Numbered from the stretch's first letter, positions 4,242 to 63,932 are shown. The stretch: DNA of 64,000 nt from an uncultured Candidatus Saccharibacteria bacterium (GCA_964626635.1 CAZVFY010000001.1:112498-176497), one strand, 5' to 3'. Program-made: numbers and translations. Notes: generated from the sequence alone by a model not told the origin.

Positions 4242-4287
4242 ATGTATTATGCTAGCACGCGCCACCCTTCCGAACGGCGCTAGTCCA

Positions 4288-28258: not shown

Positions 28259-28755
28259 GAATATACTTGATTACTTTTGTTTGAACGCATTCGGGAAGCT
28301 GTCTTTGGTTTGCTACTACCGACCTTGAGGGTGACCTTTGATTTCTCACTCGCTTTAAGGAGAGGCAGTGTGAGCACTAACACACCGTACTTAATCTTGG
28401 CATCCGCTTCATCGATGTTGACTGACTCAGGTAAAATGATACGGCGATAAAATTCGCCCCACTCGCACTCTTCAGCCACAAACGCACCAGAAACTTTTTT
28501 ACGCGGGAAAGCTATGTGTTCTGGGCGGGTGCGACGACCCTCAATTAGCACGATGTCGGCGTCACCCTCAATGGATACATGCACGTCTTCCATATCAGCA
28601 CCAGCACACTGTGCGTACACGACGATCATCCGTTCTGTTTGGTAGACATCAACGTGTAGTTGAGCAATCTTGTCCGCAGCGGTTTCTTCTGAGTCGGATA
28701 GAAGACCATCATTTTCACGCACCCCCTTACCTTTTAATCGCTGCAGAAAGGACAT
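28246..28755 (-). CDS. Hsp20/alpha-crystallin family small heat shock protein
   Basis: Alpha-crystallin domain pattern DVYQTERMIVVYAQCAGADMEDVHVSIEGD...GAFVAEECEWGEFYRRIILPESVNIDEADAKIKYGVLVLTLP, ending with the typical GVL.LTLP motif. Confidence 0.8.
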   Translation of the reverse strand: MSFLQRLKGKGVRENDGLLSDSEETAADKIAQLHVDVYQTERMIVVYAQCAGADMEDVHVSIEGDADIVLIEGRRTRPEHIAFPRKKVSGAFVAEECEWGEFYRRIILPESVNIDEADAKIKYGVLVLTLPLLKASEKSKVTLKVGSSKPKTASRMRSNKSNQVYSCIS

Positions 28756-28812
28756 ATATCAATAGTATACAAAGTTTAGTTCTGTCAATGCGTGGTTTAC
28801 CCACACAAGCGA

Positions 28813-33788: not shown

Positions 33789-35063
33789 TTAGGCGGCTTT
33801 GACCGTAGGCAAGTCACTCCAGCGCGTCGTATAGGCTGGACTGCGAGACGCTGATTTGGGTTGCCACTGCCGGGTGCGCAATCGCGACCCGATCACCACT
33901 AGCTCTCGATCTGCCTTGGCATTGATTGCGTCTAGGGCACTCAGCAGTGTCTCGTTAGTATCGGCCAGTTTGGCAAAAAAGCTACTGGTCGCCACGCCAG
34001 CGAGTGTAATACCGCTGACTGCCACCAGGACTTTTTGGTACGGTACGCCGGGTTCATGAAGTGCGAGTAACTGTGTTTGTACCATGCTGACTAACGCAAA
34101 TGTGTCATTGGTTGGGTTCGCCAAAGCGATCTCGCGAGACCCGCCACGCAACACAAAATCCCCGTGACGACTGGTGTGTAGCGATACGCGGACCGCCCCT
34201 GCGACCGCCTGCATAGCGCGCAGTTCCTCGGCGATATGCCGGGCGTGGTAGCTGGCGGCGTCTTGAATAATGGATAGATTATTTGTAGTACGGCTAAAAG
34301 ACCGTGAGTTCATCAAGCTCTTTTGTAAGGCTCGGACTGGCGTGACCGGGTACGCCACTGACCCGCGCAGTTCGGCCTGTAACCGTACCGCTCCGACTCC
34401 ACCACACGACCGAATCAGGGTACTATCGGCCTGCAATAATTCACCTACCGTACTGATACCAGCGGCGCAGTAGCGCTCGAGCATCCCTCGCCCCACACCC
34501 CAGACTTCGCCAACGCCAAGTGACCGTACGTCAGAGTGCCACCAATCCTCGGTCTCAACAAAAATACCAGTGTCGCGCTTGGCGGCACTCACGGCACATT
34601 TAGACAGAGTTTTAGTGCGTGCCACCCCGATCGAGACCGGAACACCGGTTTGTTGCCAGATCGCAGCCCGCATAGCAGCGATATTGTCCTTGACGTTCTC
34701 ATCAGCTGCGATCGTAAAAAAGCATTCGTCGATCGAGTACTGTTCCACACAGGAAAAATAAGTGCGGATGACATCAGAGACCCGTCGAGACAGATCACGA
34801 TACAGCGTAATGTTACCTGAAAACAATGTGACATCATTGTCTTTGAGACTATCTTTTACCTTAAAATAGGGTGTACCCATAGGGACACCTATGTCCTTTA
34901 TCTCTTGCGAGCGCGCGATAATGCAGCCATCGTTTGATGATAAGACAGCCACTGGTTTGGTCGCCAAATCCGGCCTAAATAGTCGTTCGCACGACACGAA
35001 GAAATTATTGCAGTCGACCAAACCAATCAGCTGGCCTTGGTTGCTATGACTCATTTGATTCAT
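33789..35063 (-). CDS. umuC: Y-family DNA polymerase, UmuC-like (Pol V catalytic subunit)
   Basis: N-terminal LIGLVDCNNFFVSCERLFRPDL matches the Y-family start (palm domain with DxNxF). A 4-nt overlap with the upstream S24 peptidase gene matches umuDC organisation. Confidence 0.85.
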   Translation of the reverse strand: MNQMSHSNQGQLIGLVDCNNFFVSCERLFRPDLATKPVAVLSSNDGCIIARSQEIKDIGVPMGTPYFKVKDSLKDNDVTLFSGNITLYRDLSRRVSDVIRTYFSCVEQYSIDECFFTIAADENVKDNIAAMRAAIWQQTGVPVSIGVARTKTLSKCAVSAAKRDTGIFVETEDWWHSDVRSLGVGEVWGVGRGMLERYCAAGISTVGELLQADSTLIRSCGGVGAVRLQAELRGSVAYPVTPVRALQKSLMNSRSFSRTTNNLSIIQDAASYHARHIAEELRAMQAVAGAVRVSLHTSRHGDFVLRGGSREIALANPTNDTFALVSMVQTQLLALHEPGVPYQKVLVAVSGITLAGVATSSFFAKLADTNETLLSALDAINAKADRELVVIGSRLRTRQWQPKSASRSPAYTTRWSDLPTVKAA

Positions 35064-35506
35064 ACACGCGCAAATTGCCGAACCGTACCAGTGACGACAC
35101 CCCAGACGTACACATCATCGGCCCCCTCAATCACGATTGGTTCGTAGCCAGTTTGCGCCGAACGCAGTTCAGTCGCGGTAGCGGTTTTGTAGAGTTGCTT
35201 AACGACCAGTTCACCAAACACCGCCGCAACGACGATACTGCCGTGCGTTGCGGTCACTGACCGATCGACCACCAGCACGTCGCCATCAAATATGCGCAAT
35301 CCCTCCATCGAGTCACCCGACACTCTGACAAAGAAGGTTGCAGTGGGATTGTCGACCAGTAAATCATTAATATTAAGTGGTGCCTCGACCAGATCATCAC
35401 CGGGCGCGGGGAATCCAGCCGCGGGGCGCGATACATACAATGGCCACTGCCGTGAATCGACATTGAGTGCAGTGGGTTTGATGTGGGTGACGCGCGTGGT
35501 TGGCAT
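35060..35506 (-). CDS. umuD: S24 LexA-like autopeptidase, UmuD-like (Pol V accessory subunit)
   Basis: 148 aa with no DNA-binding domain. Has the FFVRVSGDSMEG Ser nucleophile motif and a downstream KQLY lysine region. Translationally coupled to umuC. Confidence 0.8.
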   Translation of the reverse strand: MPTTRVTHIKPTALNVDSRQWPLYVSRPAAGFPAPGDDLVEAPLNINDLLVDNPTATFFVRVSGDSMEGLRIFDGDVLVVDRSVTATHGSIVVAAVFGELVVKQLYKTATATELRSAQTGYEPIVIEGADDVYVWGVVTGTVRQFARV

Positions 35507-35515
35507 AGCAAAATA

Positions 35516-35541
35516 CTAGCACGTCCCCTACTTTGTGCTAG
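35516..35541. promoter_or_regulatory. inverted repeat CTAGCAC-N12-GTGCTAG 10 nt upstream of the umuD start; candidate SOS-type operator or weak terminator of the upstream gene
   Basis: 7-bp perfect arms at 35516-22 and 35535-41. The right arm overlaps the stop codon of the CAP gene. On the minus strand it is followed by TATTTTGCT and then the ATG. Confidence 0.3.
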
Positions 35542-36695
35542 GCAATCGTAACGGTGCCGACGAGCGCGAACTGCACCCACCATAAACCTCCGACCAGCAG
35601 CAATAGTGCGACAGCATAAGACACTTGTCTAAAATGTAATCGCCTCGTCTCACCTAGTAGCGCAATGATGCTACAAATGATTGCCACCCCAACGAGCAAT
35701 GAATACACCGTGTCGAGGATCAGTTGCGGTCTGGTCAGCAGGCCGCTGAGGCCAGTATGCCCGCTATGCACACCATTTGACACTACTACTGGCGGTAAGC
35801 TGGCCACTGGCTCGGCGTCGACCTCGGGCACAAAGTCTGACGCAACCACGCGGTCAGATGGCACCAGAGGCGGTGCGAGAGTAGGTAGGCCCACCGGAAT
35901 GGGCGGCATAGTTGGACTGGTTTGGCCACGTGGCGAACTTTCATTTACTGGTGCAGGTGCGGAGTCTGATACCGGTGCCGGAGTCGCGAGTCCAGCTATT
36001 GCAGCGTCTTCGGTGGCGGCCGCAAGTAATTCGACTGGCTCTGGTGTCGCCGGCGTTGGTTCTGACACTGACAATGGCTCACTGAGGGTGGTTGGCGCAC
36101 TAACAGTGTCGGGTGCGGCACGCGTGGCCAAGGCCGGCGCTATCGGCGTGTCAGTTGGTGTGCCGAATAATTGCACTACGAAGATAGTTTCGTACCCTTC
36201 GTATTGACCACGAGCTGTCCCGACGCCAATCTCGGTGAATTTGCTGTCGACGATGTTTTCTTTATGGGTTGGTGAATTCATCCAGGCGCGCACTACGGCG
36301 TCCGCATCATTAAAATGTACGGCGAGATTCTCGCCCGCGTGTACATAGTCATAATTGACGTCAGCAAAAAACTCCCAGGGTGTCGTACCGTCTGGTGCAA
36401 AGTGTGCAAAATAGCCGTTTGCAGCCATGTGTTCGGCTTTGGCGGTCGCCGCTGCATCCAGCAGCGGCGACCGAGCGAGCGATGTAGCTGCGTACCCGGC
36501 TCGCTCGACGTTTGTTTCTTCGACCACCACCGCCGGCAACACCGCGCCGACTAGCCAATCTGACGATCGCCACAATAGCGCTTGGGCACTGGTACCGACG
36601 AACGTCAGTACGATCAGCCCGCCAACACACGCGAGCGCTACTTTCTCAAATTTATTGGGGGCGTACGTATCGTCTGGCGCAAACCACTGTCTCAT
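35538..36695 (-). CDS. CAP/SCP/PR-1-like (YkwD-type) extracellular domain protein with N-terminal signal anchor, Pro/Thr-rich linker and C-terminal TM segments
   Basis: CAP motifs GYFAHFAPDG...HAGENLA...AWMNSPTHKENIVDSKFTEIGVG. The start is placed at the internal ATG 36693-95 (MRQWF), 40 nt after the sortase stop. The six-frame ORF extends to 36770. Confidence 0.7.
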   Translation of the reverse strand: MRQWFAPDDTYAPNKFEKVALACVGGLIVLTFVGTSAQALLWRSSDWLVGAVLPAVVVEETNVERAGYAATSLARSPLLDAAATAKAEHMAANGYFAHFAPDGTTPWEFFADVNYDYVHAGENLAVHFNDADAVVRAWMNSPTHKENIVDSKFTEIGVGTARGQYEGYETIFVVQLFGTPTDTPIAPALATRAAPDTVSAPTTLSEPLSVSEPTPATPEPVELLAAATEDAAIAGLATPAPVSDSAPAPVNESSPRGQTSPTMPPIPVGLPTLAPPLVPSDRVVASDFVPEVDAEPVASLPPVVVSNGVHSGHTGLSGLLTRPQLILDTVYSLLVGVAIICSIIALLGETRRLHFRQVSYAVALLLLVGGLWWVQFALVGTVTIA

Positions 36696-36735
36696 ACATT
36701 GTATCGTACCATTTTCGAAGTACGTGCCGGTGCCA

Positions 36736-37419
36736 CTATGTAGATTCGCGAGTACCAACGAGCTCGGCAAATACTACGCGGTTATGCGAGTACCGCTGTG
36801 TCCCCTGGTCAAATATTCCGGAACAAGTAATTAGTCGTAACCCAGCGTGGTCGATGTCTTGGTATACCAAGTCAGTCGGGAAATCGTTCTGATCGTAGCG
36901 CTCGTTACGCGTGACCGCATATACGAGTGACACCCCATCATCGCGTTCAACAATCACTTCGTCGCCGGTTTGCAGTTGTCCGAGCGAGAAAAACACCGCC
37001 GGACCACCCACCGAGTCAACGTGCCCGAGGATCACCGAGGGCCCTAGATTGCCCGGCACTGGACTGTAGCGATACCACCCGACCTGATCGTACGTGGCTG
37101 GCACAGCCACTTCTCCAGAATCGAGCAAGCCGAGCGGATCCACAAACGTACTGTCTACTTGCGCGCGAGGGACAATCAGACGAGTCGGCCTCGTATCACT
37201 GGTGGCAGATACAACGAGAGTATCGGTTGCAACTGTAGATGTAACTGGCTCAGTCACTGCGGGCTGTACGCTCCTCGGACCTGTCACCGGATCGCCGCCT
37301 GTTTGCTGGCCGAGCACCACCAATATAACTAGCGCACACAAAAGTACGCCGACAGGCGAACCTGCGGCGTACTGCATGTGGTTTTTTAGTTGTGAGAGGA
37401 TTTCTCTAGCCTTGTCCAT
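36736..37419 (-). CDS. sortase family transpeptidase (class E/F-like)
   Basis: Signal anchor, catalytic His in ILGHVDS, Cys in the LRLITCSG (TLxTC) motif, and a downstream Arg (YSHNRVVFAEL). The start is placed at ATG 37417-19 (MDKARE), 13 nt after the upstream stop. Confidence 0.7.
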   Translation of the reverse strand: MDKAREILSQLKNHMQYAAGSPVGVLLCALVILVVLGQQTGGDPVTGPRSVQPAVTEPVTSTVATDTLVVSATSDTRPTRLIVPRAQVDSTFVDPLGLLDSGEVAVPATYDQVGWYRYSPVPGNLGPSVILGHVDSVGGPAVFFSLGQLQTGDEVIVERDDGVSLVYAVTRNERYDQNDFPTDLVYQDIDHAGLRLITCSGIFDQGTQRYSHNRVVFAELVGTREST

Positions 37420-40327
37420 GTGACTGCATTCGAACAAATCGAAGTGCAAATGTCAAGAGAGCAAGGATGGCAAGAGCTCCGGCCGCGTTCGTGCCAGTGG
37501 CTGTTCCACCGGCTCCGGTATTAGCACCACCGCTTGGTACTACGGTGACCTGCTCGCCTGCAACTAGTGGAGTTGGTGCGGCGGTTGTGCTGATACCAGC
37601 CACAGTGCCGGCCACCTCGTCACCAGACTCGATGTCAGCGACCACTAGAGCGCCGCCAGCTCCACCGTTGTTGCTTCGATTAACGCGCGTTGCTAACGGA
37701 TTTGACGAGTCGTTTTCATCTGGATTCAAGCTTCCTTGATTACCGGTCGCTCCGCCGCCAGTACCACCGGTACTGCCACCGTTACCTGATCCTGTAGCAA
37801 CGTACGGAGTACAACTACTGTCCAAGATTACAATCGCGTCGACATCATACCCATCACCGCCCACGGTTGTTTGGTCAACTAATCGGACGTGGGTGACCTC
37901 CGTCAAACCGGCTACAGCGATGTCAACACTGCCGTCGCCAGTGATTGTACCAGCTGAAGCAAAGTTAACTCCGTCATCCGATAGTAAGACTTCTACAGCC
38001 TCTTTCGTGTCGCGGTTGCTACCGGTCACTTCGTAGATTGCAATATCGTCGCCAGCTGTATCAACTGCTTTTTGACCAGTAAATTCATAGTCTAGTTCAC
38101 CGTTGATACCGAGTGAGAAGAAATCACTTGGGTTAAACGTTGCTTCGCCGCCGGTAACGTTTTGGTAGCTAGCGATTGTATCAAGCGCCGTGAGAGTTCG
38201 TCGCTCAGTCGCTACTGGATTGCCGTCACTATCTACTGCATTGTCAGTCGATCGAACGATCGCGCCCTCAAGCGAACAAACGTTTGGTGTCGTGTCTGGA
38301 GCTACACACCCTGCAACGGTGACCGTAAGCGTTCCGCGATTATCTCTGTACCACTTATTTTTCTCTTCAAAAATGGCAAAGTTCATCGGGCTGTCTGTTC
38401 CGCTTACCAATGTTTGGTACGTATGAGCTGCGTTGTACGCACCCCACTCAACGTCTACCCCATCAATATAGAGATCGTGGGTTTCTTTCCCGGCTGCTTT
38501 CTTTGTCTGACCAGTTGGATCCCAGAACGCTGGTGATGATGGCTGGCTAGATCCAAATCCATTAAATGAGCTATATTCTGCATCTGATACATTGTCTTTT
38601 GATGTGCTGTTGCCGCCTAATCGATCAGACTCTTTACCGGTCCCGGGACCCCACGTAAAGGTACCGGATACAGTAATCAAGTAGTCTTCAGTGCTGAGCA
38701 AGTCAATGTCAGTCGTGGCTCCGGCTGGATTACGCGAATCAACGCTGAGGGTGGCAATTGTCTCGACTGTATGATCGGCTGGGCACTGGAGGACTGGGGT
38801 CGGTTCTGATGCTGGACACAAAGTAAACGTGTACGTAGCATTGTTTCCATCCACGTCATAGACAACCATGGTGTTTTGACCCGCAACCGCACCAAACACA
38901 CCGGGCTTAATAAAGTTCACATCACTCCATTCATTGTCTGACAAATCTTTCACAACGCCGTTGATTTCGACCCGATCAATCTCGCCGCCCTTATCGCGTA
39001 ACTTGTAGCTAATCATCGAATAGCCAAGTTCACAGGTAGTGGTGAATTTTTCTTCTGGTTTGATAGTCGCGGTTGGTGCGCTCGACTCTTTGTCTCGACC
39101 GGCACACAGCGTCACTATAATTTCTGTCATGTTGCCAGCAGTATCAAACAACTGAATTGTGTTCATGCCTTCAACCGCACCGTCACGTCCGGCCCGCACG
39201 CCATTAAGATCACTGAATTTGTCATCCTTCAAGTCTTTCTTTTCGCCGTTGATAAGTACGTAGTCAATTGCAACATTGTCTTTCAATTTGTAACTGACAT
39301 TTGAGAATCCTTGACCTGATTCGCACCGGTTAGCGCCATCTTTTTGGTCAATTTGTGGTTTTTTAGTGTCAATAGGAGTTGGTTCAGGACATACTGCGCC
39401 AAGACTTCCAGCCGTGGCAGTACGACTCTTGCCTTCAGCTGGGTTACCAAGTGTCCATTCAATTGCTTCAGTCGCTAGGTCAAATTCAACCGAAAACGCT
39501 GCATTTTCTGGCCGAAAGACTCCAGTATCATTAACAAATGGTGTGCGGCCAGGTAGAAATTCTGTTGGCTGTCCACGGTCTGGTCCATCCTGTACCTTGT
39601 TAAAGTCACCAAAATCAATGGTTACTGTTTCGGTGTTGCTATTTGTGTATCCAAAGTAGCCGGTCGCAGTCACACCGTCTTCATTTGGCAGGTAACACTC
39701 AAAGATTGGCTTAATTTCCCATGTTGGGTTGGTGTCAGGCTGATTTGTGTCTTCTGACTCATTTTCACCTCCCTGGTCATCTTCACCCATAGAAACAACG
39801 GCTTTAACTGTTGCAGTTTGAGCAATTAGAATAGTATTGTCACCAGTCGTTACTTCGGTGAAAATATCATACTCACCTTCGGCATCATTTTGATAGCAAA
39901 CACTCTTGCTTTGTGAATTTGTTCTAATAGTCACTTGCGTAATTGGTCCATTGTCGACATTACACACACCCTCATGAGTTCCGCCAAAGAATGTACCTCC
40001 AGCACCGCCGTCAGACAATTTCACAGTAGTTGTCTCAGTAGCCTTTTGATCAAGACTTAACTTGAAATTAATTGGCTGTCCAACCACGCCCGCAATGTTT
40101 CCCAGCTCTTCAATTTTAGTTGGTGGTGTTGGTGTATCTGGCGTGTCTAAGGCCTGAACGTCAGACAAGTCCTCTAATGTCAGATCTTCGCCTGTCTCGG
40201 TTTCAATCTCCGCATTTAATTCAGCATCCTCTTGCGCTGTCGCCACCGGCACGCTACCGATTGCAATTGCCACCAGCGCGAACGCAGTGAAGCACTTTGT
40301 AATAAAACTTTCTTGCATACGTATCAA
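37406..40327 (-). CDS. large secreted surface protein (973 aa) with tandem ~85-aa repeats and C-terminal hydrophobic anchor plus basic tail; putative sortase substrate
   Basis: Signal peptide MIRMQESFITKCFTAFALVAIAIGSVPVATAQ. Repeated ...C..G...SYKL(K/R)D...ID.V.ING..KDL...LC modules. The C-terminus is ...AGALAILALLTFALRFVRMQSHGQG, a sorting-signal-like topology but without a canonical LPXTG. Confidence 0.55.
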   Translation of the reverse strand: MIRMQESFITKCFTAFALVAIAIGSVPVATAQEDAELNAEIETETGEDLTLEDLSDVQALDTPDTPTPPTKIEELGNIAGVVGQPINFKLSLDQKATETTTVKLSDGGAGGTFFGGTHEGVCNVDNGPITQVTIRTNSQSKSVCYQNDAEGEYDIFTEVTTGDNTILIAQTATVKAVVSMGEDDQGGENESEDTNQPDTNPTWEIKPIFECYLPNEDGVTATGYFGYTNSNTETVTIDFGDFNKVQDGPDRGQPTEFLPGRTPFVNDTGVFRPENAAFSVEFDLATEAIEWTLGNPAEGKSRTATAGSLGAVCPEPTPIDTKKPQIDQKDGANRCESGQGFSNVSYKLKDNVAIDYVLINGEKKDLKDDKFSDLNGVRAGRDGAVEGMNTIQLFDTAGNMTEIIVTLCAGRDKESSAPTATIKPEEKFTTTCELGYSMISYKLRDKGGEIDRVEINGVVKDLSDNEWSDVNFIKPGVFGAVAGQNTMVVYDVDGNNATYTFTLCPASEPTPVLQCPADHTVETIATLSVDSRNPAGATTDIDLLSTEDYLITVSGTFTWGPGTGKESDRLGGNSTSKDNVSDAEYSSFNGFGSSQPSSPAFWDPTGQTKKAAGKETHDLYIDGVDVEWGAYNAAHTYQTLVSGTDSPMNFAIFEEKNKWYRDNRGTLTVTVAGCVAPDTTPNVCSLEGAIVRSTDNAVDSDGNPVATERRTLTALDTIASYQNVTGGEATFNPSDFFSLGINGELDYEFTGQKAVDTAGDDIAIYEVTGSNRDTKEAVEVLLSDDGVNFASAGTITGDGSVDIAVAGLTEVTHVRLVDQTTVGGDGYDVDAIVILDSSCTPYVATGSGNGGSTGGTGGGATGNQGSLNPDENDSSNPLATRVNRSNNGGAGGALVVADIESGDEVAGTVAGISTTAAPTPLVAGEQVTVVPSGGANTGAGGTATGTNAAGALAILALLTFALRFVRMQSHGQG

Positions 40328-52833: not shown

Positions 52834-52868
52834 GTACTTCTACATCACAAAATTCAAGGAGACTCGTG

Positions 52869-53372
52869 ATGATACGTACTCTGTTCTTTCTGCTCGCCCT
52901 GTTTGCACCCGCGGGCGCCTCGGCCATGACCCAGCAGCGGCTCGAGTCCTGCTGGGGTAACATCCAGCCCTACCAGGTTGGCTTCACCGAGGTCTACAAC
53001 GATGGATCTCGCGCCCGCGGCACGTTCGTCGTCGAGAGTCCCTCGACCGTTCGACTGCGGTACCACTCGGGCGCCGAGACCTGGTTCACTCGACAGAAGT
53101 TTCACGTCCGTGACCATGTGTCCGGGCGTGTGGAAGAGTATCCGGGCGGCACGTTCACCTACCTGATGCGTCGCAAGCCCCAGCTCGGTCGCGTGGCGAC
53201 GCAGATCATGCCTGGTGACCGAGAAACCGGTGTCCGTCTGCACGATCCCAGTGGTCGAGTTGGCGGACATGTCGACGTCTATTTCGACAACAACTGCCGG
53301 ATGGTGCGATGGGAAACCCGCACCATCGTCGACGGGAGGCAGAACCATGTTGACACCCACTTCGGTGGGTGA
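52869..53372 (+). CDS. secreted protein of unknown function, compositionally atypical (GC-rich)
   Basis: Signal peptide MIRTLFFLLALFAPAGASA. GC content is far higher than in the flanking groES and secG. The six-frame ORF starts at GTG 52866; the ATG at 52869 is preferred. Confidence 0.5.
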   Translation: MIRTLFFLLALFAPAGASAMTQQRLESCWGNIQPYQVGFTEVYNDGSRARGTFVVESPSTVRLRYHSGAETWFTRQKFHVRDHVSGRVEEYPGGTFTYLMRRKPQLGRVATQIMPGDRETGVRLHDPSGRVGGHVDVYFDNNCRMVRWETRTIVDGRQNHVDTHFGG

Positions 53373-55565: not shown

Positions 55566-57614
55566 ATGAACGAACAAAACAATCAATCTAATAACAATCG
55601 CTCGCGGCGCACGTTTTCGCCTCGTCGCGGATTTGGTAACCGTACCAATAACAACGACAATCGCTCGGGGGGCAGTGGCCAAAACCGCGGTGGTGGACCG
55701 CGTGGCGGCGGTGGCCAACACCGCCCCGGCGGCGTACAACGATCTAGTGGCGGTAACCGCGGTGGTGGACGCAATGTCCAAGATCGTGGTGGCAATGGTA
55801 AGGGCGGTAATCGTGGTGCCGGTGGCGGACAGCGTCGCGGTGGCAACAATCACCGCCGTCGCTCCGACAAAGCTCCTGCCCTCACGCACCGCCTCAGCGA
55901 AACCACCGACAAAATGCCAGTCATTCCTGAAATCACTGACGAAGACACTGTACGCATCATCACCGTATCAGGGGTCGAAGAAATCGGCCGCAACATGAAC
56001 ATCATCGAAACCAAAGACGATATCCTCGTGATCGACGCTGGGTTCCAGTTTGTATCAGAAGAAAGCAATGCGCCCGGTATTAACTACATTCTACCGAACA
56101 CGCAGTACCTCGAGGAACGCAAGCACAAAATTCGCGGACTCTTGGTGACGCACGGTCACCTCGACCACATCGGCGGTATTCCCTTCGTGCTCGAACGAAT
56201 TGGCAATCCACCAATTTACACGCAGTACCTGACTTCACTGATGATCCTCAAGCGCCAAGAGGAATTCCCGCAGATGGAACCAGTCAACATGAACGTCGTC
56301 AAAGAAGGCGAAACGTTCACTGTCGGCAACACCAAGGTCAAGTCATTCCCAGTGACCCACTCGATTCCAGATGCGATGGGTATTGGCATCGAAACCAAGC
56401 ACGGTGATATCGTCATCACGGGCGACATCAAGCTAGTCCACGAAAACGGTGAGGTCGTCGTCGAAGAACGGTCCAGCTGGGAAAAGGTGGGAAAGAACAA
56501 CAACCTGGCTCTCTTATGTGACTCGACCAACTCTGACCGCGCAGGTTTCTCGGCGACCGAAGCCCGTGTATACGAAACTCTCGAAAATATTATCCGTGCT
56601 GCCACTGGCCGCCTGATCATCGGGACATTTGCGTCGCAGTTTGATCGTTTGATCAACGTGATCAAAACGTGTGAAGAACTCGGCAAAAAGGTCGTCCTCG
56701 AAGGCCGCTCCATGAAAACCAACGTCGAGATCGCCCTGCACGCAGAACTGCTACAAGTCGACCCCGGCGTGTTTATTCCAGCTGGTGATATTGGTGAATA
56801 TCCAACCGACAAAATCGTCGTATTATCAACTGGTGCCCAGGGCGAAGAGTTCGCCGCCCTGATGCGCATGGCCACTGACAAGCACAAGTTTATTACTTTG
56901 ACAGAACGTGACACCATTGTGTTGTCATCATCTGTCATCCCAGGAAATGAAATTGCTGTCCAGAAATTAAAAGACAACATCTACCGCAAGAACGTCAAAG
57001 TCATTAACTACCAAGGCTCACACGTGCACTCTAGCGGGCACGGCAACGCTGGTGAGTTGATCTGGGTACAACAAACCGTTAAGCCCAAGTTCCTCGTCCC
57101 GGTGCACGGTCACCACTACCACCTCAAGAGCCACATGTACGCCTCAGTGGAGAATGGCTTCCCTCGTGAGAATATTGTAGTACCGGATAACGGTACCATC
57201 ATCGATATTCACAACGGCGAGACTATTAGCGTCCAGCCAATGAAAGTTCCCAATGAACTATTGATGGTCGACGGTTTTACAGTTGGCACTAAACAAGAAG
57301 TCGTCTTGCGCGATCGCCAAACGCTGGCCGAAGACGGCATGTTCGTGATTATTGCAACCGTCAACACCAAGACCGGTAAACTGCGCAAGTCGCCAGACAT
57401 CATCTCTCGTGGGTTTGTGTATCTGCGTGAGAATCAGCAATTACTCTCGGAAGCGCGCGTTCTCGTCAAGCGCACCATTGAAAAGCACACTGAACACATG
57501 CAGCCGCTCGACCTCGAATACGTTAAGGAGCAAGTATCAGACACACTATCTGGTTTCCTCATGCAGCGCACCCAAAAGACACCGATGGTGATCCCGGTAC
57601 TAATCGGCATCTAA
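55566..57614 (+). CDS. rnj: ribonuclease J (metallo-beta-lactamase/beta-CASP) with ~110-aa N-terminal Arg/Gly/Asn-rich low-complexity extension
   Basis: LLVTHGHLDHIGG (HxHxDH), beta-CASP motifs and a C-terminal domain. The N-terminus is RGGGPRGGGGQHRPGGVQRSSGGNRGGGRN...GGQRRGGNNHRRR. Confidence 0.9.
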   Translation: MNEQNNQSNNNRSRRTFSPRRGFGNRTNNNDNRSGGSGQNRGGGPRGGGGQHRPGGVQRSSGGNRGGGRNVQDRGGNGKGGNRGAGGGQRRGGNNHRRRSDKAPALTHRLSETTDKMPVIPEITDEDTVRIITVSGVEEIGRNMNIIETKDDILVIDAGFQFVSEESNAPGINYILPNTQYLEERKHKIRGLLVTHGHLDHIGGIPFVLERIGNPPIYTQYLTSLMILKRQEEFPQMEPVNMNVVKEGETFTVGNTKVKSFPVTHSIPDAMGIGIETKHGDIVITGDIKLVHENGEVVVEERSSWEKVGKNNNLALLCDSTNSDRAGFSATEARVYETLENIIRAATGRLIIGTFASQFDRLINVIKTCEELGKKVVLEGRSMKTNVEIALHAELLQVDPGVFIPAGDIGEYPTDKIVVLSTGAQGEEFAALMRMATDKHKFITLTERDTIVLSSSVIPGNEIAVQKLKDNIYRKNVKVINYQGSHVHSSGHGNAGELIWVQQTVKPKFLVPVHGHHYHLKSHMYASVENGFPRENIVVPDNGTIIDIHNGETISVQPMKVPNELLMVDGFTVGTKQEVVLRDRQTLAEDGMFVIIATVNTKTGKLRKSPDIISRGFVYLRENQQLLSEARVLVKRTIEKHTEHMQPLDLEYVKEQVSDTLSGFLMQRTQKTPMVIPVLIGI

Positions 57615-57691: not shown

Positions 57692-58897
57692 ATGCCGATC
57701 CCGACACACGTTTCGCCTGTTCATTTCTTGCGTACCACTCCACGTAAACGACAGTTATGGCCAACTTATGCCATGACGCTGCTGCTGATTTTCCACGGTC
57801 TTACAGTCCTGTTCTACAACTCTACCTACCTTGGACAGTTCTTTAGCACTGAACACATTGGGCTGATTTTTATGTCTGGTTCGTTACTGGGAGTTATGTG
57901 CTTCCTAGGAATCGCAAAACTCCTGCGAATATTTGGCAATTTTTACCTGACAATACTTTTATTAGCAGCAGATTTCGTGGCTATAATCACCATGGCAGTT
58001 ACGACCAACGCTGTGATTGCAGTGACCTCTCTACTAGTACACTTGTTGACAGTACCGCTCATTATATTTTCGCTCGATGTATTTTTAGAAGCTCGAATTG
58101 GTAATGATGAATCCAGCACAGGTTCCAGCCGCGGCCTTCTGCTCACGCTCAGTAGTCTGGTGGCTGCGCTGTCACCGCTAATAGCTGGACTAGTGATCAG
58201 CGAAGACAATCTTTCAATGGCATATATATTGAGCGCGTGTAGCATTGTGCCAATAATCATCCTACTATTTATACATGAGCGCCAATTCAAAGATCCAAAG
58301 TACCCATCTGTACCGGTCTGGGGTGCGGTACGTCTATTTTTGCATAATCATAACTTGCGCGGTGTGAGTGTGGCACATTTAGTGCTACAAACCTTTTTTT
58401 CAGTAATGGTTATTTATATGCCAATTTATCTAACCCAAGAGATCGGCTTAACTCTGCGCGAATTTGGTGTCATTATGTTTATCGCAATTATGGCCTTTGT
58501 TTTACTCGAGTACCCCGTAGGCAAATTAGCTGATAGTACAATTGGAGAAAAAGAACTGATGGCAGTGGGGTTTACAATTATGATTCTGGCTCTGGGTTGG
58601 ATATCATTTACCACCACTACGCACGTTGCGGCATGGGCTGGAATATTATTCTTTTCGCGCATTGGGGCGGCCTTGGCCGAGGTAACCACTGAGAGTTACT
58701 TTTTTAAACAAACCAAATCAGTAGACGCGCAAATTATTAGCTTTTTTCGACTGACCAGACCGCTCGCGGGTTTCTTAGGCGCAGCATTCGGTAGTCTTGC
58801 ATTACTTTTCATACCTTTAAATCTAGTATTTGTAGCGTTTGCAGTGCTTGTGCTACCGGCTCTGATTGCTACTATGACCATCACTGACTCGCGATAG
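57692..58897 (+). CDS. multi-pass membrane transporter, MFS-like
   Basis: About 12 hydrophobic helices and a G(K)LAD..IGEK loop resembling MFS motif A in the second half. AT-rich relative to its neighbours. The six-frame start (GTG 57659) lies inside the rnj terminator, so ATG 57692 is used; ATG 57773 is also possible. Confidence 0.5.
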   Translation: MPIPTHVSPVHFLRTTPRKRQLWPTYAMTLLLIFHGLTVLFYNSTYLGQFFSTEHIGLIFMSGSLLGVMCFLGIAKLLRIFGNFYLTILLLAADFVAIITMAVTTNAVIAVTSLLVHLLTVPLIIFSLDVFLEARIGNDESSTGSSRGLLLTLSSLVAALSPLIAGLVISEDNLSMAYILSACSIVPIIILLFIHERQFKDPKYPSVPVWGAVRLFLHNHNLRGVSVAHLVLQTFFSVMVIYMPIYLTQEIGLTLREFGVIMFIAIMAFVLLEYPVGKLADSTIGEKELMAVGFTIMILALGWISFTTTTHVAAWAGILFFSRIGAALAEVTTESYFFKQTKSVDAQIISFFRLTRPLAGFLGAAFGSLALLFIPLNLVFVAFAVLVLPALIATMTITDSR

Positions 58898-58907
58898 TAC
58901 ATAATTG

Positions 58908-59762
58908 TCAGGTACCCAACCGGTACGCACGACCGTTGCGCGTAATCAATCCTTCGGCTTCTAATGTAACTAGAACAGCCCCGACTCGCTCGTCGTGAAT
59001 GGATTGCTGTAATGCATTCGCCGTCTGCGGCCCCGCCGAGAGATGGCGCAATACTGCTCCTCGGACAGCCCTCCGAGAGCCTAAAAAGATTGGTTGACTG
59101 CGATACTGCGATAGTACGCGGGTGTTATTACCATGCACAGTTTTGAGGTGCGCACCATAGTCCATTAAGGCCGCGTACCAGTCACGTGGATTTGTTGTAT
59201 CAACAGTGTCCGAAACGAGTGCGACAAGATCTGATTCCTTTACTTCTGTGCAGCCCGAAAAATAATGGTGAATGTAGACCTGGCGCACATTAGTTTCGAT
59301 CAGTGTGACAGGCTGGTTGTAAGCAAAGACTTGAATGGCACTGGCGGTATAGGTTCCAACACCCGGTAGTTTCAGTAGATCAGATCGCTCGCGAGGCAAC
59401 ACTCCACCTGGCTGCCCAACCACTGTCTGAGCACACTGCCATAAAAACTTCGCCCGGCGATTGTACCCCAAACCTTGCCAATGTCGTAACACGTCTGATA
59501 AATCTGCTGTGGCTAAGGCTGATAGCGTCGGGAACGTTGCCAAGAAAGCAGTAAATTTTGGAATTACTCGCGCCACTTGGGTTTGCTGGAGCATAAGTTC
59601 TGACACTAATACCTGGTATGGCTCAAAGGTTTCTCGCCATGGCAAATCGTGCCGACCGTGTGCAGCGTAATAGTCCCACACTGTTTTCTTTAAAGCGGTG
59701 TGGCGGTCCGATTTAGCTAGTTTTTTGACCATAGGTGGCGCACAATTGCACCAGCCAACCAC
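58908..59762 (-). CDS. HhH-GPD base-excision DNA glycosylase, MutY-like, lacking the [4Fe-4S] cysteine cluster
   Basis: VSELMLQQTQVARVIPKF...LGYNRRAKFL...LPGVGTYTASAI is close to the MutY core (SEVMLQQTQV, LPGVGRSTAGAI). It has no Cx6Cx2Cx5C cluster. LIETNV sits where MutY has LDGNV. The C-terminal ~90 aa is not NUDIX-like. A probable alternative start is 59732 (MVKKLAK). Confidence 0.7.
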   Translation of the reverse strand: MVGWCNCAPPMVKKLAKSDRHTALKKTVWDYYAAHGRHDLPWRETFEPYQVLVSELMLQQTQVARVIPKFTAFLATFPTLSALATADLSDVLRHWQGLGYNRRAKFLWQCAQTVVGQPGGVLPRERSDLLKLPGVGTYTASAIQVFAYNQPVTLIETNVRQVYIHHYFSGCTEVKESDLVALVSDTVDTTNPRDWYAALMDYGAHLKTVHGNNTRVLSQYRSQPIFLGSRRAVRGAVLRHLSAGPQTANALQQSIHDERVGAVLVTLEAEGLITRNGRAYRLGT

Positions 59763-60814
59763 ATCACACTAAGGCCATACACGAACGCCAATACTTGAGG
59801 AACAAACCCCAAGATGCCAATCACTAACCCACCGAACAGCACTGACATCAATCCGATATCGCTTCGTTTTGCAAACCAGCGTTGCAACGTATGGCCAAGT
59901 AGAATTGGCACACACGCTCCCGCTACCAAAAACAGCAGTAAGTACAACAGCAAAAGAATGGTGGCTACATATAACCCTACCGTGGTAAGCGAAAGTACGC
60001 CAATTAGTATTGGTAGTAGTATTAAAAGGGTCAACCCAACCAGGCCAGATATGATTGCCCGGTATGGCGCGCCTTTAATCAGATCGGTCACTGACGCGCG
60101 GGCGATGAATAGCAGTGTACACGATGCAAACAATAAGGTTGCTAGCGCGACGTATTGAAAACTGAGCAGTGGATTGCTATCAGCCTGGACCGGATCGTTA
60201 CGCAGCAACTCACCTTGTAGCACTGCCGATGGGGCTACCGCTGCTACGTTACTACTAATATAACGAATTGATTCGGTCACAGATGCAGTAGCACCGATAT
60301 TAAAAGCATTCACTCGTACGTCTACCCGCTCTCGCACTACACTATCGAGCGACAAATCACCATAGGTACCCAGCACACTACCAGCAATATCTCCTGCAAC
60401 AGTCGCTCGGTTAACGTAAAGAATTACGTCTCCACCAATCACTGCAGTTGAAAGAATGGATACTTCGTTCGCGAGGACGAGAACGTCGCCATTGATCGTA
60501 CCTGATAACTCGACACTACCACCAACAATACGCACATCACCTGCGACCTCGCCAGTGCTAGTTACAAACAATCCGGCCGCAGTCAGGTCATCTGTAATGA
60601 CGCCATTGTGAGATACTCGATTACCTACTAATGTACCGTCACCATTAACCACGCCGGAGAGAACGACTGGCGTACCAATTGCTACCAAATTACCGTCAAC
60701 TGCTTCCTGACCGCTTAATTCGAAATTTTGCGCGGTCCGGATGACCGTATCTGCAGATACCCACGCTGGGGCGAGAAACGTTATACAACACAGAATTAGG
60801 TACAAATACTTCAT
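59717..60814 (-). CDS. membrane protein with secreted beta-helix-like (bactofilin/DUF583-like) repeat domain and C-terminal multi-TM region
   Basis: Signal peptide MKYLYLILCCITFLAPAWVSA. Repeated ...G(D/N)(V/L)...VxGDV... units (VAGDVRIVGGSVELSGTINGDVLVLANEV...IGGDVILYV...VAGDIAGSV) are followed by 4-5 TM helices. Confidence 0.35.
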   Translation of the reverse strand: MKYLYLILCCITFLAPAWVSADTVIRTAQNFELSGQEAVDGNLVAIGTPVVLSGVVNGDGTLVGNRVSHNGVITDDLTAAGLFVTSTGEVAGDVRIVGGSVELSGTINGDVLVLANEVSILSTAVIGGDVILYVNRATVAGDIAGSVLGTYGDLSLDSVVRERVDVRVNAFNIGATASVTESIRYISSNVAAVAPSAVLQGELLRNDPVQADSNPLLSFQYVALATLLFASCTLLFIARASVTDLIKGAPYRAIISGLVGLTLLILLPILIGVLSLTTVGLYVATILLLLYLLLFLVAGACVPILLGHTLQRWFAKRSDIGLMSVLFGGLVIGILGFVPQVLAFVYGLSVMWLAGAIVRHLWSKN

Positions 60815-61602
60815 GTTTGTATATCTTCTCTTATTACAGTTCGCTTGACAGCTATTCTCTCCTCCACTTCCTGAATAATCTTACTTTCCTCTATTCGCTT
60901 TAGTTCCTCCTTCTTTATAGTAGAAGTGGCAATATTTTCTTTCTCACCCAAATTCATAACGAGAAACAAAAAGGTTGCAATACCGATAATGCCAATTAGG
61001 TTGAGTATCAGGATTAGGAACGCGCCACGCGCGACTTCAATGTCGAGGGCAGCCATCCCAATGCCAATGGTTGCAAGCGGCGGAATTAAAGCTACTGCGA
61101 TCGCTACGCCAGGCAGTGCCTCGCTCCACTCTGGTCGAGCAAGCATGTACGCCACCGCCGCTCCAGCTACAATGGCAACAAACAGATGGAGTAGGTGCGG
61201 CTCGGTGCGTAGGAGGACCTGCTCGGTCAAATACGAATTGCCGCTGCCAAACAAAAGCGCTGCTACGGTCGCCAACACGACACCGCTAGACAGTGATATA
61301 AAAAGTGTACGCACAGCCCGCTGGAGAATAGATATTCTCTCGCCCATCATCACAAGTCCCAAAGCCACACCTAAAACCGGATACATGAGTGGCGCAATAA
61401 GCATGCTACCAATCACAATAGAACTACTGTCCAATAACAGTCCGAATGTTGCCATTAGGGTAGACAAGCCGATCAGATAAAAATAATCAAAATCAGCTGT
61501 ACTGCTTGACACTAATTTGCGAACCAAAGCAGCCTTATCTTGTTCGGGAACAGCCCGAAAACGGGCAATAATACTCATGGAGCAAATATACCATACTGTC
61601 AC
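60811..61602 (-). CDS. DUF389/TIGR00341-like multi-pass membrane protein
   Basis: Hydrophobic helices with the LIAPLMYPVLGVALGL...IALIPPLATIGIGMA pattern recalled from the DUF389 family. The C-terminal tail is charged and helical. Confidence 0.5.
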   Translation of the reverse strand: MTVWYICSMSIIARFRAVPEQDKAALVRKLVSSSTADFDYFYLIGLSTLMATFGLLLDSSSIVIGSMLIAPLMYPVLGVALGLVMMGERISILQRAVRTLFISLSSGVVLATVAALLFGSGNSYLTEQVLLRTEPHLLHLFVAIVAGAAVAYMLARPEWSEALPGVAIAVALIPPLATIGIGMAALDIEVARGAFLILILNLIGIIGIATFLFLVMNLGEKENIATSTIKKEELKRIEESKIIQEVEERIAVKRTVIREDIQT

Positions 61603-61804
61603 TAGATTATTAGCCGGTTATCAGTGGACTAACTGCACTGACACGGGAGCCTGCAATACCCCGATCAACAATAATGCTACCAATACCAAAATGACGCAGA
61701 TGATGAACAAACGCAACCTTGAACGGGATAGTTCTCGCTGACCGGTATGCCAGTTGCGCTCGTATAAGAAATGAAACGCAAACTGTAAGAAATTACGCAT
61801 TACT

Positions 61805-63043
61805 TTATTGTACTGACTGGGGTGCTCGATCTAGGGTGACATCCACAGTTTCTTCAGTGCCATCAATTAGCAAAGTCAAGGACACTGTGTCTCCTGGTTG
61901 ATATTCACGCAACACCGCAGCAAGCGTACGCCCCTCTAATTTGGTATCGTCAATAGACAAAATTATGTCTCCTGCTTGCAGACCGATAGAATCAGCCGGT
62001 GAACCGGGCATGACTGCCCGCAGTCCAGTGGCGGCATCGCCCACAATCAGGGCGCCATACTCGACCGTCAGATTATCCCGCTCGGCAATTTGTGACGTAA
62101 TATTGGCGTATCGTACACCGATGTACGGTCGCACAATCTCGCCAAACTCTTCAACTGACTGTACGACCGTCTCGACTACGTGCGCTGGCAGCGCAAAGCT
62201 AATGTTATCAGCGCCTCTTGAGGTGGCAACATTAACCCCAATAACTTCCCCACGCAAATTTACGAGCGGACCTCCTGAATTACCCGGGTTGATAGCTGCG
62301 TCTGTTTGAATCACAGAATCTAGCGTTTCACTTCGACCCATACCATCACTAGCAACGATCGATCGCCCCAACCCAGAGACAACCCCAACCGATACTGAGT
62401 TTCGAAATTCTGCTAGGGCATTACCGATAGCGACCACTGATTCACCTAATTGAAGGTTTTCGGAGTCTCCAAACTGTAAAAACGGTAAATCAGTTACAGA
62501 TTGATCTGCTACTTGCAGTAAGGCAATATCTAATTGTGGATCACGAGCCACCACCTCGGCTTCATAGATATTGCCGTCAGTGAGTACGACTGAGTAGTCT
62601 GCTTCTCGATCATCTACTACGTGACGATTCGTCACAATTAATCCATCACTTGAAACCAGAAACCCGGACCCTCCACCCACTTCACGTTGTTCAGTTCCAT
62701 TGCTGCGCACCCGTGGTACTGACCACCCGAACCAACTATCTTCGTAAAACCGCTCAAACACCGGCACGTCTCTAGTCACGATCACTGACACTACCGCTGG
62801 GTTCACCGCGGCAATGGTGTCAACTACGGACCCATTCGCAATAAAAGGAGCTGTTGTGCCAGTGCTCATGATCGGATTGTCACTGGGTCCTGAGGTGGCA
62901 TTTGGAGTAACGTCAAGCTGCTGTGCGAGCGATGTGACGAGTTGATCTTTCGCGAGTAGAGCTACCACCCCAATGATAGCAAGCGTGGTGGTGACACTAA
63001 TCACAATAGTAACGAATGTATTATTCTGGTTTGAATGTTGCAT
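61805..63043 (-). CDS. htrA: HtrA/DegP-family serine protease with PDZ domain
   Basis: N-terminal TM, catalytic His (TNRHVV), Asp, and Ser in GNSGGPLVN. A C-terminal PDZ domain (GSPADSIGLQAGDIILSID). Confidence 0.85.
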   Translation of the reverse strand: MQHSNQNNTFVTIVISVTTTLAIIGVVALLAKDQLVTSLAQQLDVTPNATSGPSDNPIMSTGTTAPFIANGSVVDTIAAVNPAVVSVIVTRDVPVFERFYEDSWFGWSVPRVRSNGTEQREVGGGSGFLVSSDGLIVTNRHVVDDREADYSVVLTDGNIYEAEVVARDPQLDIALLQVADQSVTDLPFLQFGDSENLQLGESVVAIGNALAEFRNSVSVGVVSGLGRSIVASDGMGRSETLDSVIQTDAAINPGNSGGPLVNLRGEVIGVNVATSRGADNISFALPAHVVETVVQSVEEFGEIVRPYIGVRYANITSQIAERDNLTVEYGALIVGDAATGLRAVMPGSPADSIGLQAGDIILSIDDTKLEGRTLAAVLREYQPGDTVSLTLLIDGTEETVDVTLDRAPQSVQ

Positions 63044-63074
63044 AAGCTGTGGTTTCTAATACGCCGCTAATTTA

Positions 63075-63932
63075 TTAGTCTTTCGCTGCCTTATCAAATT
63101 GGTAGTAATTACTTTCGGGAAACAATTGTAAGCCTCGCTCCCACATTTCGGGGCGATCTTGTAATTTTAACCAATACCACCATTCGGCTCCCCACAGGTA
63201 TTGCTGTTCATATCGGGTTGAAGCGGCGTAGGTCAAGATATCTTCAAATTTCTGCAAATTCATCCGGGTAAATTGCACTGGTATGGGTACGTCGACAATC
63301 GGCTCGAGCAGCCACGGCTCGGCCGAGAGTTCTATAAGGACTGTTTCCTTCTGGCCATAGCGCCACTCCATCAACGTTTCCTTGGCGCGGTAGAACCACG
63401 GTGGTAGCCATGTGCGAAACTGTCCTAGCTCAGGATTCCAAAAGTGAACGTACACGCTGGTCCCGAACACATCCCCGCGCGAATACGCGCCAGCCCACAG
63501 ACCAAGATTACCTGAATCAGTGATGATGATCGGTCTATTGGGATCCATTTCGCGCACCAATTCGATTGACTGGTCGAGAAAGGCTTTGTCTAGTTCACCG
63601 CAGTGTTCGAACGCAAATGCCGCCAAAAATGGCTCGTTCTCAACCTGCCACCACATCACGGCCGGGCTGTCGCGATAGCGTTCGACGACGGCTTGCATGT
63701 ATTCTAGCTGCGCTGCATTACGCTCCGCCAGCGTAAACTCCTGATCCTGCAACCAGTTCGGGTCATGGCACTCTGGCCAGCGTGGCAAACGGCGCCCGAC
63801 AGCTAGTACAACCGTTGCCCCCACCTCCTCCGCTCTCGTTATTTGGTAATCTAGCTCGGCCCAGTTATATGCGTCTAGCTGTGGCTCGATCATTGGCCAG
63901 TGGGCCGTCAGGCGCAAGTGACGCACCCCCAT
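63075..63932 (-). CDS. glycoside hydrolase, GH-A clan TIM-barrel (GH5/GH42-like); N-terminus may extend past window end
   Basis: WPMIEPQLDAYNWAELD...VVLAVG...WWQVENEPF (NEP acid/base motif). The ATG is at 63930-32 and the frame may continue toward 64000. Confidence 0.45.
   Translation of the reverse strand: MGVRHLRLTAHWPMIEPQLDAYNWAELDYQITRAEEVGATVVLAVGRRLPRWPECHDPNWLQDQEFTLAERNAAQLEYMQAVVERYRDSPAVMWWQVENEPFLAAFAFEHCGELDKAFLDQSIELVREMDPNRPIIITDSGNLGLWAGAYSRGDVFGTSVYVHFWNPELGQFRTWLPPWFYRAKETLMEWRYGQKETVLIELSAEPWLLEPIVDVPIPVQFTRMNLQKFEDILTYAASTRYEQQYLWGAEWWYWLKLQDRPEMWERGLQLFPESNYYQFDKAAKD

Follow-up and report, generated by a model that had tools for sequence, protein, structure and literature searches.

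The 64-kb window, by which we mean the whole stretch of DNA that was analysed, carries on its minus strand a confirmed open reading frame at 58908..59762, corresponding to 284 amino acids if translation is read from a GTG codon. This GTG falls within the upstream gene, whose end lies at position 59717, and an ATG at 59732 is most likely the true start, giving a protein of 274 aa and a 16-nt overlap with the 3' end of the upstream gene (Table 1). The ATG is favored because public gene calls on identical metagenome contigs (several JGI samples, the longest contig being 210 kb) begin there, because the collection contains a protein identical to the 274-aa product, and because the lengths of the homologues have a median of 272 aa. 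An antisense ORF of 69 aa at 59461..59670 (plus strand), wholly within the conserved coding sequence, was considered spurious.

The immediate upstream neighbor encodes a membrane protein that weakly matches bactofilin/DUF8173, and genes for DUF389 and HtrA proteins lie further upstream on the same strand. Downstream, a converging MFS transporter gene is found 10 nt away. The local gene order, with GH5, DUF389, DUF8173-like and glycosylase genes on one strand and MFS, RNase J and SBP5 genes facing them on the other, recurs in a Candidatus Paceibacterota MAG, in which RNase J is 78% identical over 581 aligned residues. This synteny assigns the window to the Patescibacteria. These flanking genes (membrane proteins, HtrA, MFS transporter and RNase J) offer no functional support for a glycosylase role, and a scan for promoters and terminators across 58500..63300 returned no more sites than shuffled sequence.

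Within the 64-kb window, a six-frame regex search combined with Pfam analysis of most large ORFs revealed no NUDIX box, Fpg N-terminus, Nth or second MutY, and the GO partners mutM/fpg, mutT and ogg were not seen. The flanks of 80 related loci, searched by regex, likewise showed no recurrent NUDIX or Fpg linkage, with NUDIX boxes at 4 of the 80 loci and Fpg motifs at none. Other DNA-damage genes in the window are limited to one pair, a UmuD-like gene and a Y-family polymerase gene, at 33789..35506.

Table 1. Window coordinates of the predicted glycosylase gene and of the protein features discussed in the text.
Feature	Position	Strand	Basis or correspondence
CDS of the probable MutYX-type adenine DNA glycosylase	58908..59732	-	274 aa + stop, ATG at 59732
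N-terminal MutY-like HhH-GPD catalytic domain, residues 14-196	59145..59693	-	TIGR01084, Pfam, Foldseek
Glu45, predicted catalytic general acid, in SELMLQQTQV	59598..59600	-	MutYX Glu33, GsMutY Glu43; role per PMC12631127
Gln50 and Thr51, predicted OG Watson-Crick-face contacts	59580..59585	-	MutYX Gln38/Thr39; role per PMC12631127
Tyr90, predicted intercalating wedge Tyr, in GLGYNRRA	59463..59465	-	MutYX Tyr78, GsMutY Tyr88
Helix-hairpin-helix, residues 109-133, LPGVGTYTASAI	59334..59408	-	Pfam HHH, E = 8e-6
Tyr128, canonical active-site Tyr position	59349..59351	-	opposite Eggerthella MutYX Ala116
Leu144-Ile145-Glu146	59295..59303	-	Glu146: MutYX Glu134, EcMutY Asp138, GsMutY Asp144
Segment in place of the Fe-S cluster loop, residues 197-212	59097..59144	-	E. 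coli MutY alignment
C-terminal X domain, winged helix, residues 218-274	58911..59081	-	AlphaFold, 8UUC superposition
Predicted 8-oxoG recognition sphere	59070..59096	-	Gln213 (59094..59096) and Arg221 (59070..59072)

A MutY-like catalytic core without the cluster loop

A sequence-only reading of the locus had assigned the N-terminal part of the protein to the MutY-like HhH-GPD core, and profile searches bear this out. The NCBIfam equivalog TIGR01084 (mutY) aligned residues 14-196 to profile positions 2-189 of 277 with E = 3.7e-52, and the Pfam HhH-GPD family was matched with E = 1.5e-14. The TIGR01084 score of 177.6 bits lies below the cut-off of 286.5 bits for a canonical full-length MutY. 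The PRK10880 model scored 143.6 against a cut-off of 427, its match ending at profile position 194 of 351, and the Nth model TIGR01083 reached 52.5 bits against the 211.7 bits that mark an Endonuclease III. The motifs quoted in the earlier reading (SELMLQQTQV, LPGVGTYTASAI and LIETNV), together with the C-terminal sequence it cited, were all located in the protein.

Among PDB entries, the best match by a wide margin was 8UUC chain A (E = 5.9e-56), aligned over residues 28-236 (209 residues) with no gaps, so that the numbering of the corresponding publication equals the residue number of the window protein minus 12. The E. coli, Geobacillus and human MutY structures aligned only to residues ~16-197, with E values of ~1e-33 to 1e-26. 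8UUC is the DNA-bound MutYX of Eggerthella sp. YY7918 (Trasvina-Arenas et al., NAR 2025, PMC12631127; bioRxiv January 2025), a protein with no [4Fe-4S] cluster, with Glu134 for the catalytic Asp, and with an X domain instead of the MutT-like domain. The window protein resembles it in length (274 versus ~273 aa), in its two-domain architecture, in the absence of a [4Fe-4S] motif and in its winged-helix X domain. Residue by residue, Glu45, Gln50, Thr51, Leu88, Tyr90, Glu146, Tyr192, Arg205, Gln213 and Arg221 correspond to Glu33, Gln38, Thr39, Leu76, Tyr78, Glu134, Tyr180, Arg193, Gln201 and Arg209 of the Eggerthella enzyme. The two proteins differ in that they are only 40% identical and in that Arg194 of the Eggerthella protein corresponds to Val206.

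With canonical MutY/MUTYH (TIGR01084; 1KG2, 6U7T), the window protein has in common the HhH-GPD core, at 35-38% identity and an rmsd of ~2 Å over ~190 residues, as well as the catalytic Glu, the MLQQTQV motif, the wedge Tyr, Asn148 and the H8 Tyr (GsMutY Tyr126), and the chemistry is presumed to be the same. Unlike the canonical enzymes, it lacks the Cx6Cx2Cx5C motif and the FCL loop, has Glu for Asp and Gln151 for the bridging Arg, and ends in a winged-helix domain of ~57-67 aa that replaces the NUDIX/MutT-like domain and the FSH loop.

The Glu at the catalytic Asp position, also pointed out in the sequence-only reading, is confirmed by the phmmer alignment to E. coli MutY, in which TLIETNVRQV stands opposite PILDGNVRRV with no gaps and Glu146 pairs with Asp138. 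In MutYX, the Glu134 side chain bends so that its carboxylate takes the place of the catalytic Asp (PMC12631127), and in earlier work, as cited in that paper, replacing the catalytic Asp of EcMutY by Glu left the enzyme with wild-type-like activity. By analogy with the 8UUC structure, which would explain it, the substitution in the window protein is best read as conservative.

The loss of the cluster is seen in the following segment, residues 197-212. The alignment to E. coli MutY stops at Cys192, the first cluster ligand, which lies opposite Lys197; the Cx6Cx2Cx5C motif occurs in none of the six frames of the 64-kb window, and the Fe-S-loop Pfam family matched neither the protein nor any of 118 family members. 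The earlier count of a single Cys was in error, as the 274-aa protein contains two (C100 and C161; four with the GTG start), and the conclusion that there is no [4Fe-4S] cluster is unchanged. Among the 120 closest homologues, 61 contain no Cys at all. Gln151 occupies the position of EcMutY Arg143 (GsMutY Arg149), which bridges the Asn/catalytic site to a Cys ligand, and this replacement fits the loss of the cluster.

In MutYX, an extended H11, which includes Tyr180, and an additional helix, Hw, which bears Arg193, compensate for the lost cluster (PMC12631127). The AlphaFold prediction for the window protein contains a long helix at residues 182-200, followed by a short one at 204-206, and Arg205, the counterpart of Arg193, may likewise contact the DNA phosphate or backbone. 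The clusterless MutYs of Lactobacillales (Lactobacillus brevis, Streptococcus pneumoniae) are similar to the window protein in lacking the four Cys ligands, but they keep the NUDIX-like OG-recognition domain and the FSH loop (PMC12631127), whereas the window protein has no NUDIX-like domain.

A winged-helix domain at the C-terminus

The C-terminal region was examined in an AlphaFold model built from a 118-sequence MSA (pLDDT 95.4, pTM 0.90, with pLDDT >90 in the X domain), which was used instead of a discarded single-sequence model (pLDDT 40.6). The chain ends at residue 274 in a well-folded winged helix, with helices at 220-232, 238-245 and 250-259, strands at 263-266 and 269-272, and the order H-b-H-H-b-b for residues 220-272. 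A Foldseek search of the PDB with this model ranked 8UUC_A first, with 271 columns aligned (of 274 residues), TM scores of 0.87/0.87 and an rmsd of 2.0 Å at 40% identity. Canonical MutYs were superposed over only ~190 columns, with an rmsd of ~2 Å, and alignment to them brought out neither a conventional Asp nor a Cys cluster.

Profile searches are in line with the model and with the view of the sequence-only reading that the C-terminus is a winged helix and not a NUDIX domain. NUDIX Pfam families, including NUDIX_4, had no match in the protein or in the 118 family members. The sole C-terminal Pfam match in the protein was a sub-threshold one to the winged-HTH family HVO_A0261_N, and ~20 of the 118 members gave weak winged-HTH matches (HVO_A0261_N, HxlR, MarR_2, ArsR and TrmB across the protein and the family).

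A phmmer search of the PDB with the C-terminal 64 aa returned no match even at E = 10, the X-domain sequence being too diverged for this test. With residues 198-274 as the query against 1.84 billion representatives, phmmer found 50 matches at E <= 0.001, a number that reflects the sensitivity limit of a 77-aa query and not the size of the family. These were the C-termini of ~270-aa homologues or fragments thereof, together with two long multi-stretch matches, one to TPR repeats and one to a repeat protein, that were read and dismissed as artefacts. No stand-alone regulators were recovered with this query.

In the Eggerthella enzyme, the X domain consists of three helices and three short strands (~67 aa) and clamps the lesion duplex, and 8-oxoG is read by Gln201 in the connector and by Arg209 in the first X-domain helix, the latter directed to the 8-oxo group (PMC12631127). 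The equivalent residues of the window protein, Gln213 and Arg221, pair with them in the gapless alignment to 8UUC. A related architecture has been described for the archaeal "MutYA", with a MutY-like N-terminal domain and a predicted winged helix-turn-helix C-terminal domain that is similar to the MutYX X domain, itself termed a winged helix-turn-helix (Horvath et al., Struct Dyn 2025, PMC12585504, meeting abstract); by this description, which is the sole basis of our comparison, MutYA resembles the MutYX-type architecture. Archaea-labelled loci in our own searches (Methanoregulaceae/Methanoregula, Woesearchaeota, Halobacteria) shared the key residues, with best-segment identities of 43-46%.

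Conservation and distribution of the family

Next, we evaluated the conservation of the named residues and the spread of the family. A word-indexed search returned 7705 proteins at E <= 1e-10, a total that includes canonical MutYs through their common N-terminal domain, and the best 120 of these were all 263-301 aa long. A scan of one genome per species gave at least 599 confirmed loci. With thousands of metagenomic homologues and a relative in at least 599 species genomes, the combination of features is common and not rare. By record title, Patescibacteria (Saccharibacteria, Paceibacterota, Kaiserbacteria and others) account for 51 of the 80 best of the at least 599 loci, a ranking that is biased to the query's own lineage. 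The remainder of these 80 includes Nitrospirota, Thermodesulfobacteriota, Coriobacteriia, Treponema, Jettenia and Omnitrophota, as well as Methanoregula- and Woesearchaeota-labelled loci, among others.

Glu45, Gln50, Thr51, Leu88, Tyr90, Glu146, Asn148, Tyr192, Lys197, Gln213 and Arg221 were invariant in 118-120 homologues, and 92 of 120 had Arg or Lys at position 205. Across the 80 best of the at least 599 species loci, Glu45, Tyr90, Gln213 and Arg221 were present in all 80. Position 146 was Glu in 120 of 120 close homologues and in 77 of the 80 species loci, the three exceptions being Nitrospirota loci with Asp.

The active-site Tyr behaves differently. In Eggerthella MutYX, Ala116 replaces the canonical active-site Tyr (GsMutY Tyr126) and Tyr132 is recruited from the connector, whereas the Entamoeba and Chlorobi MutYXs retain Asp and the H8 Tyr; the swap is described as clade-specific and limited to Actinobacteria (PMC12631127). 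The window protein, with Tyr128 and Leu144 opposite Ala116 and Tyr132, has the Glu of this Actinobacteria-type subgroup and lacks its Tyr/Ala swap. Judged by alignment, it represents a mixed state, Glu with the H8 Tyr, that is common in the family: among the 120 closest homologues, the combination of residues at positions 128 and 144 was Y+L in 41 cases and N+F in 68, and across the 80 species genomes Y+(L/M/V/I/F), N+F, A+F, N+Y and A+Y were all found. In many CPR members, H8 bears Asn or Ala and the connector bears Phe, which leaves no Tyr hydroxyl at either site. The pairing put forward in PMC12631127, of Glu with the Tyr/Ala swap (Actinobacteria) and of Asp with the canonical Tyr (Entamoeba/Chlorobi), breaks down across the family.

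At position 128, the 120 homologues and 80 loci had Y, N, A, S, G or H; Lys did not occur. We take this position to be that of EndoIII Lys120 and EcMutY Ser120, which decides lyase activity, and because it is never Lys in the family, the glycosylase is probably monofunctional.

Proposed function and alternative explanations

Together, these data place the window protein in the MutYX family by fold, architecture and conservation of the named residues, and we consider it highly probable that its gene specifies a monofunctional adenine DNA glycosylase of the MutYX type, acting in the GO (8-oxoguanine) repair system, in a Patescibacteria (CPR) genome. Its activity as an 8-oxoG:A adenine glycosylase, and its substrate, are inferred from the characterized homologue, and its mode of action is most likely that of the Eggerthella enzyme. 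The Eggerthella protein excises adenine from OG:A with a k2 of 6.2 per min, compared with 5.8 per min for EcMutY, and prefers OG:A over G:A by ~40-fold, compared with ~80-fold for EcMutY; an R209A substitution collapses its OG:A specificity (PMC12631127).

By homology to the DNA-bound Eggerthella structure and its enzymology, the following mechanism can be proposed. The HhH-GPD and winged-helix X domains would together encircle the duplex, with Tyr90 wedged in on the 5' side of 8-oxoG. Gln50, Thr51 and Leu88 would read the Watson-Crick face of 8-oxoG, and its Hoogsteen face and 8-oxo group would be read by Gln213 in the interdomain connector and Arg221 in the first X-domain helix. The mispaired adenine would be flipped into the pocket and protonated at N7 by Glu45; Glu146, in the role of the canonical Asp, would stabilize or capture the oxocarbenium ion, and water would then release the abasic site. 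The [4Fe-4S] loop would be replaced by the longer helix and the short extra helix, the latter touching the DNA backbone through Arg205.

The sequence-only reading had raised the possibility of an altered lesion specificity or else of a role in regulation. We find instead that its three oddities are the defining traits of the published MutYX family (PMC12631127). The observation was partly confirmed, the number of Cys residues being the detail in error, and the interpretation partly supported, in the sense that the description was correct and that the inference drawn from it finds no support, the published enzymology favoring neither a regulatory role nor a markedly different specificity. One form of the first proposal, in which the MutYX fold has shifted its substrate range in this lineage, acting mainly on G:A or on adenine or other bases opposite other lesions such as deamination products, is in our view unlikely. 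It draws on the weaker discrimination between OG:A and G:A by the Eggerthella enzyme, whose authors speculate on other substrates in anaerobes (PMC12631127), on the high variability of positions 128 and 144 and on the lack of GO partner genes nearby. However, the OG-specificity residues Arg221 and Gln213 are invariant in all 200 sequences examined, which argues for continuing selection on 8-oxoG reading. The wedge Tyr and the residues that contact the Watson-Crick face do not vary either.

The second proposal, a winged helix serving as a sequence-specific DNA-binding or regulatory module on a repurposed or inactive glycosylase core, is very improbable. The winged-HTH transcription-factor families that might suggest it all scored under their curated Pfam cut-offs, the catalytic residues are all invariant, and the search with residues 198-274 led to no stand-alone regulators; moreover, the X domain of 8UUC clamps the lesion duplex and contributes Arg209 to the 8-oxo group, by analogy with which the winged-helix domain here is best understood as a lesion reader and not a regulator. 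A third alternative, which the resemblance of the N-terminal 190 aa to canonical MutY cores might suggest, is that the protein is a conventional MutY or EndoIII and that misalignment or a wrong frame hid its Asp, Cys cluster and NUDIX domain. It is refuted by the truncated and sub-threshold profile matches, the two Cys residues, the absence of the cluster motif from every frame, the winged-helix terminus with NUDIX_4 in 0 of 118 members, and the same architecture in hundreds of genomes.

With the assignment to a MutYX-type adenine DNA glycosylase, the three oddities of the protein become traits of its family, for which a structural explanation has been published. In substance, "A/G-specific adenine glycosylase" is a correct annotation, and "MutYX-type" makes it more precise. 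The understanding of the mechanism is unchanged, and what is added to the published account is limited to the breadth of MutYX in CPR bacteria and the variability at the active-site Tyr positions; that account discusses 46 clusterless MutY homologues in terms of a "devolution in anaerobes" and does not mention Patescibacteria (PMC12631127). The family is spread far more widely than these 46 homologues and is especially common in small-genome CPR bacteria. As a tentative extension, which we hold at somewhat less than even confidence, the usual MutY of Patescibacteria/CPR may be MutYX, which would then not be a rarity restricted to a few anaerobes, with scattered occurrences in Nitrospirota, Thermodesulfobacteriota, Planctomycetota, spirochaetes and methanogenic archaea. 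Within the family, the supposedly essential active-site Tyr would repeatedly have been moved or lost, and the window protein, with Glu and the canonical Tyr, would be one of several intermediate states. If this is true, the picture of 46 clusterless MutYs arising by devolution in anaerobes would need revision, and the family would provide a natural series for dissecting the dispensability of the Tyr-Glu dyad.

Probable surface-protein genes and a cohesin-dockerin pairing

The longest reading frame in this set (Table) carries Laminin_G_3/Pentaxin, DUF2341 and Ig-like domains, as identified by Pfam searches of two 2000-aa segments (14611..26610), and because of these domains its product is likely to be a giant surface protein. 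The first ~250 nt of the reading frame, in window coordinates, overlap the ORF at 2724..4535, the product of which combines fibronectin-III and purple-acid-phosphatase N-terminal domains. A cohesin-dockerin pairing (26726..30681, minus strand) lies close together, apparently in a Patescibacteria genome. The 973-aa ORF adjoining the sortase gene matched no Pfam family at E ≤ 0.001; its product could be a substrate for sortase or a surface protein of some other kind.

Table. Features of the window surrounding the MutYX gene, in window coordinates.
Feature	Coordinates	Strand	Remark
Fibronectin-III ORF	2724..4535		
Giant ORF, 7440 aa	4288..26610	-	Single ORF
Cohesin-domain protein	26726..28258	-	Pfam
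Small Hsp20 gene	28246..28755	-	Between cohesin and dockerin genes
Big_6 and dockerin type I protein	28813..30681	-	Pfam
Y-family polymerase gene	33789..35063	-	IMS, IMS_C and DUF4113 domains (Pfam)
UmuD-like Peptidase_S24 gene	35060..35506	-	Overlaps Y-family polymerase gene
CAP-domain protein	35538..36770		Near cohesin-dockerin genes
Sortase	36736..37449		Near cohesin-dockerin genes
973-aa ORF	37406..40327	-	Directly upstream of sortase gene
168-aa ORF	52854..53360	-	Mirror of plus-strand ORF
168-aa ORF	52866..53372	+	Mirror of minus-strand ORF
RNase J gene	55566..57614	+	Metallo-beta-lactamase domain preceded by N-terminal extension

Translesion pair, RNase J and mirrored reading frames

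The two overlapping genes at 33789..35506 (minus strand) are predicted to encode a UmuDC-like translesion pair and, besides the MutYX gene, are the only DNA-damage genes in the window. The N-terminal extension of RNase J comprises ~100 aa of very Gly-, Arg- and Asn-rich, low-complexity sequence. In related loci, tblastn alignments to RNase J start at query residue 102 at the earliest, and the extension is therefore either unconserved or masked as low complexity. Neither 168-aa mirror ORF in 52854..53372 had a Pfam match; public gene calls place a 167-aa gene of unknown function there.

Active-site residues across the MutYX family

We compared the window protein with the best 80 of at least 599 species-genome loci with relatives and with its closest homologous proteins (P0002-P0120). 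Many of these MutYX homologues, especially those labelled Saccharibacteria, replace the helix-H8 Tyr (Tyr128 in the window protein) by Asn or Ala and have Phe at the connector position (Leu144), such that a Tyr hydroxyl is absent from both proposed partner sites of the catalytic Glu. The Ala and Phe combination also occurs in one Coriobacteriia locus, L056. Among MutYXs, the connector Tyr has been described as exclusive to Actinobacteria (PMC12631127); in contrast, a few Saccharibacteria homologues carry it too, together with Asn or Ala at the H8 position.

At the catalytic position, Glu was found in all loci examined (the best 80 of at least 599) except three from Nitrospirota, L054, L066 and L070, where Asp is retained, as are both the Tyr of helix H8 and the Gln/Arg 8-oxoG-reading sphere. 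These Asp-type homologues may preserve the ancestral condition in the MutYX family.
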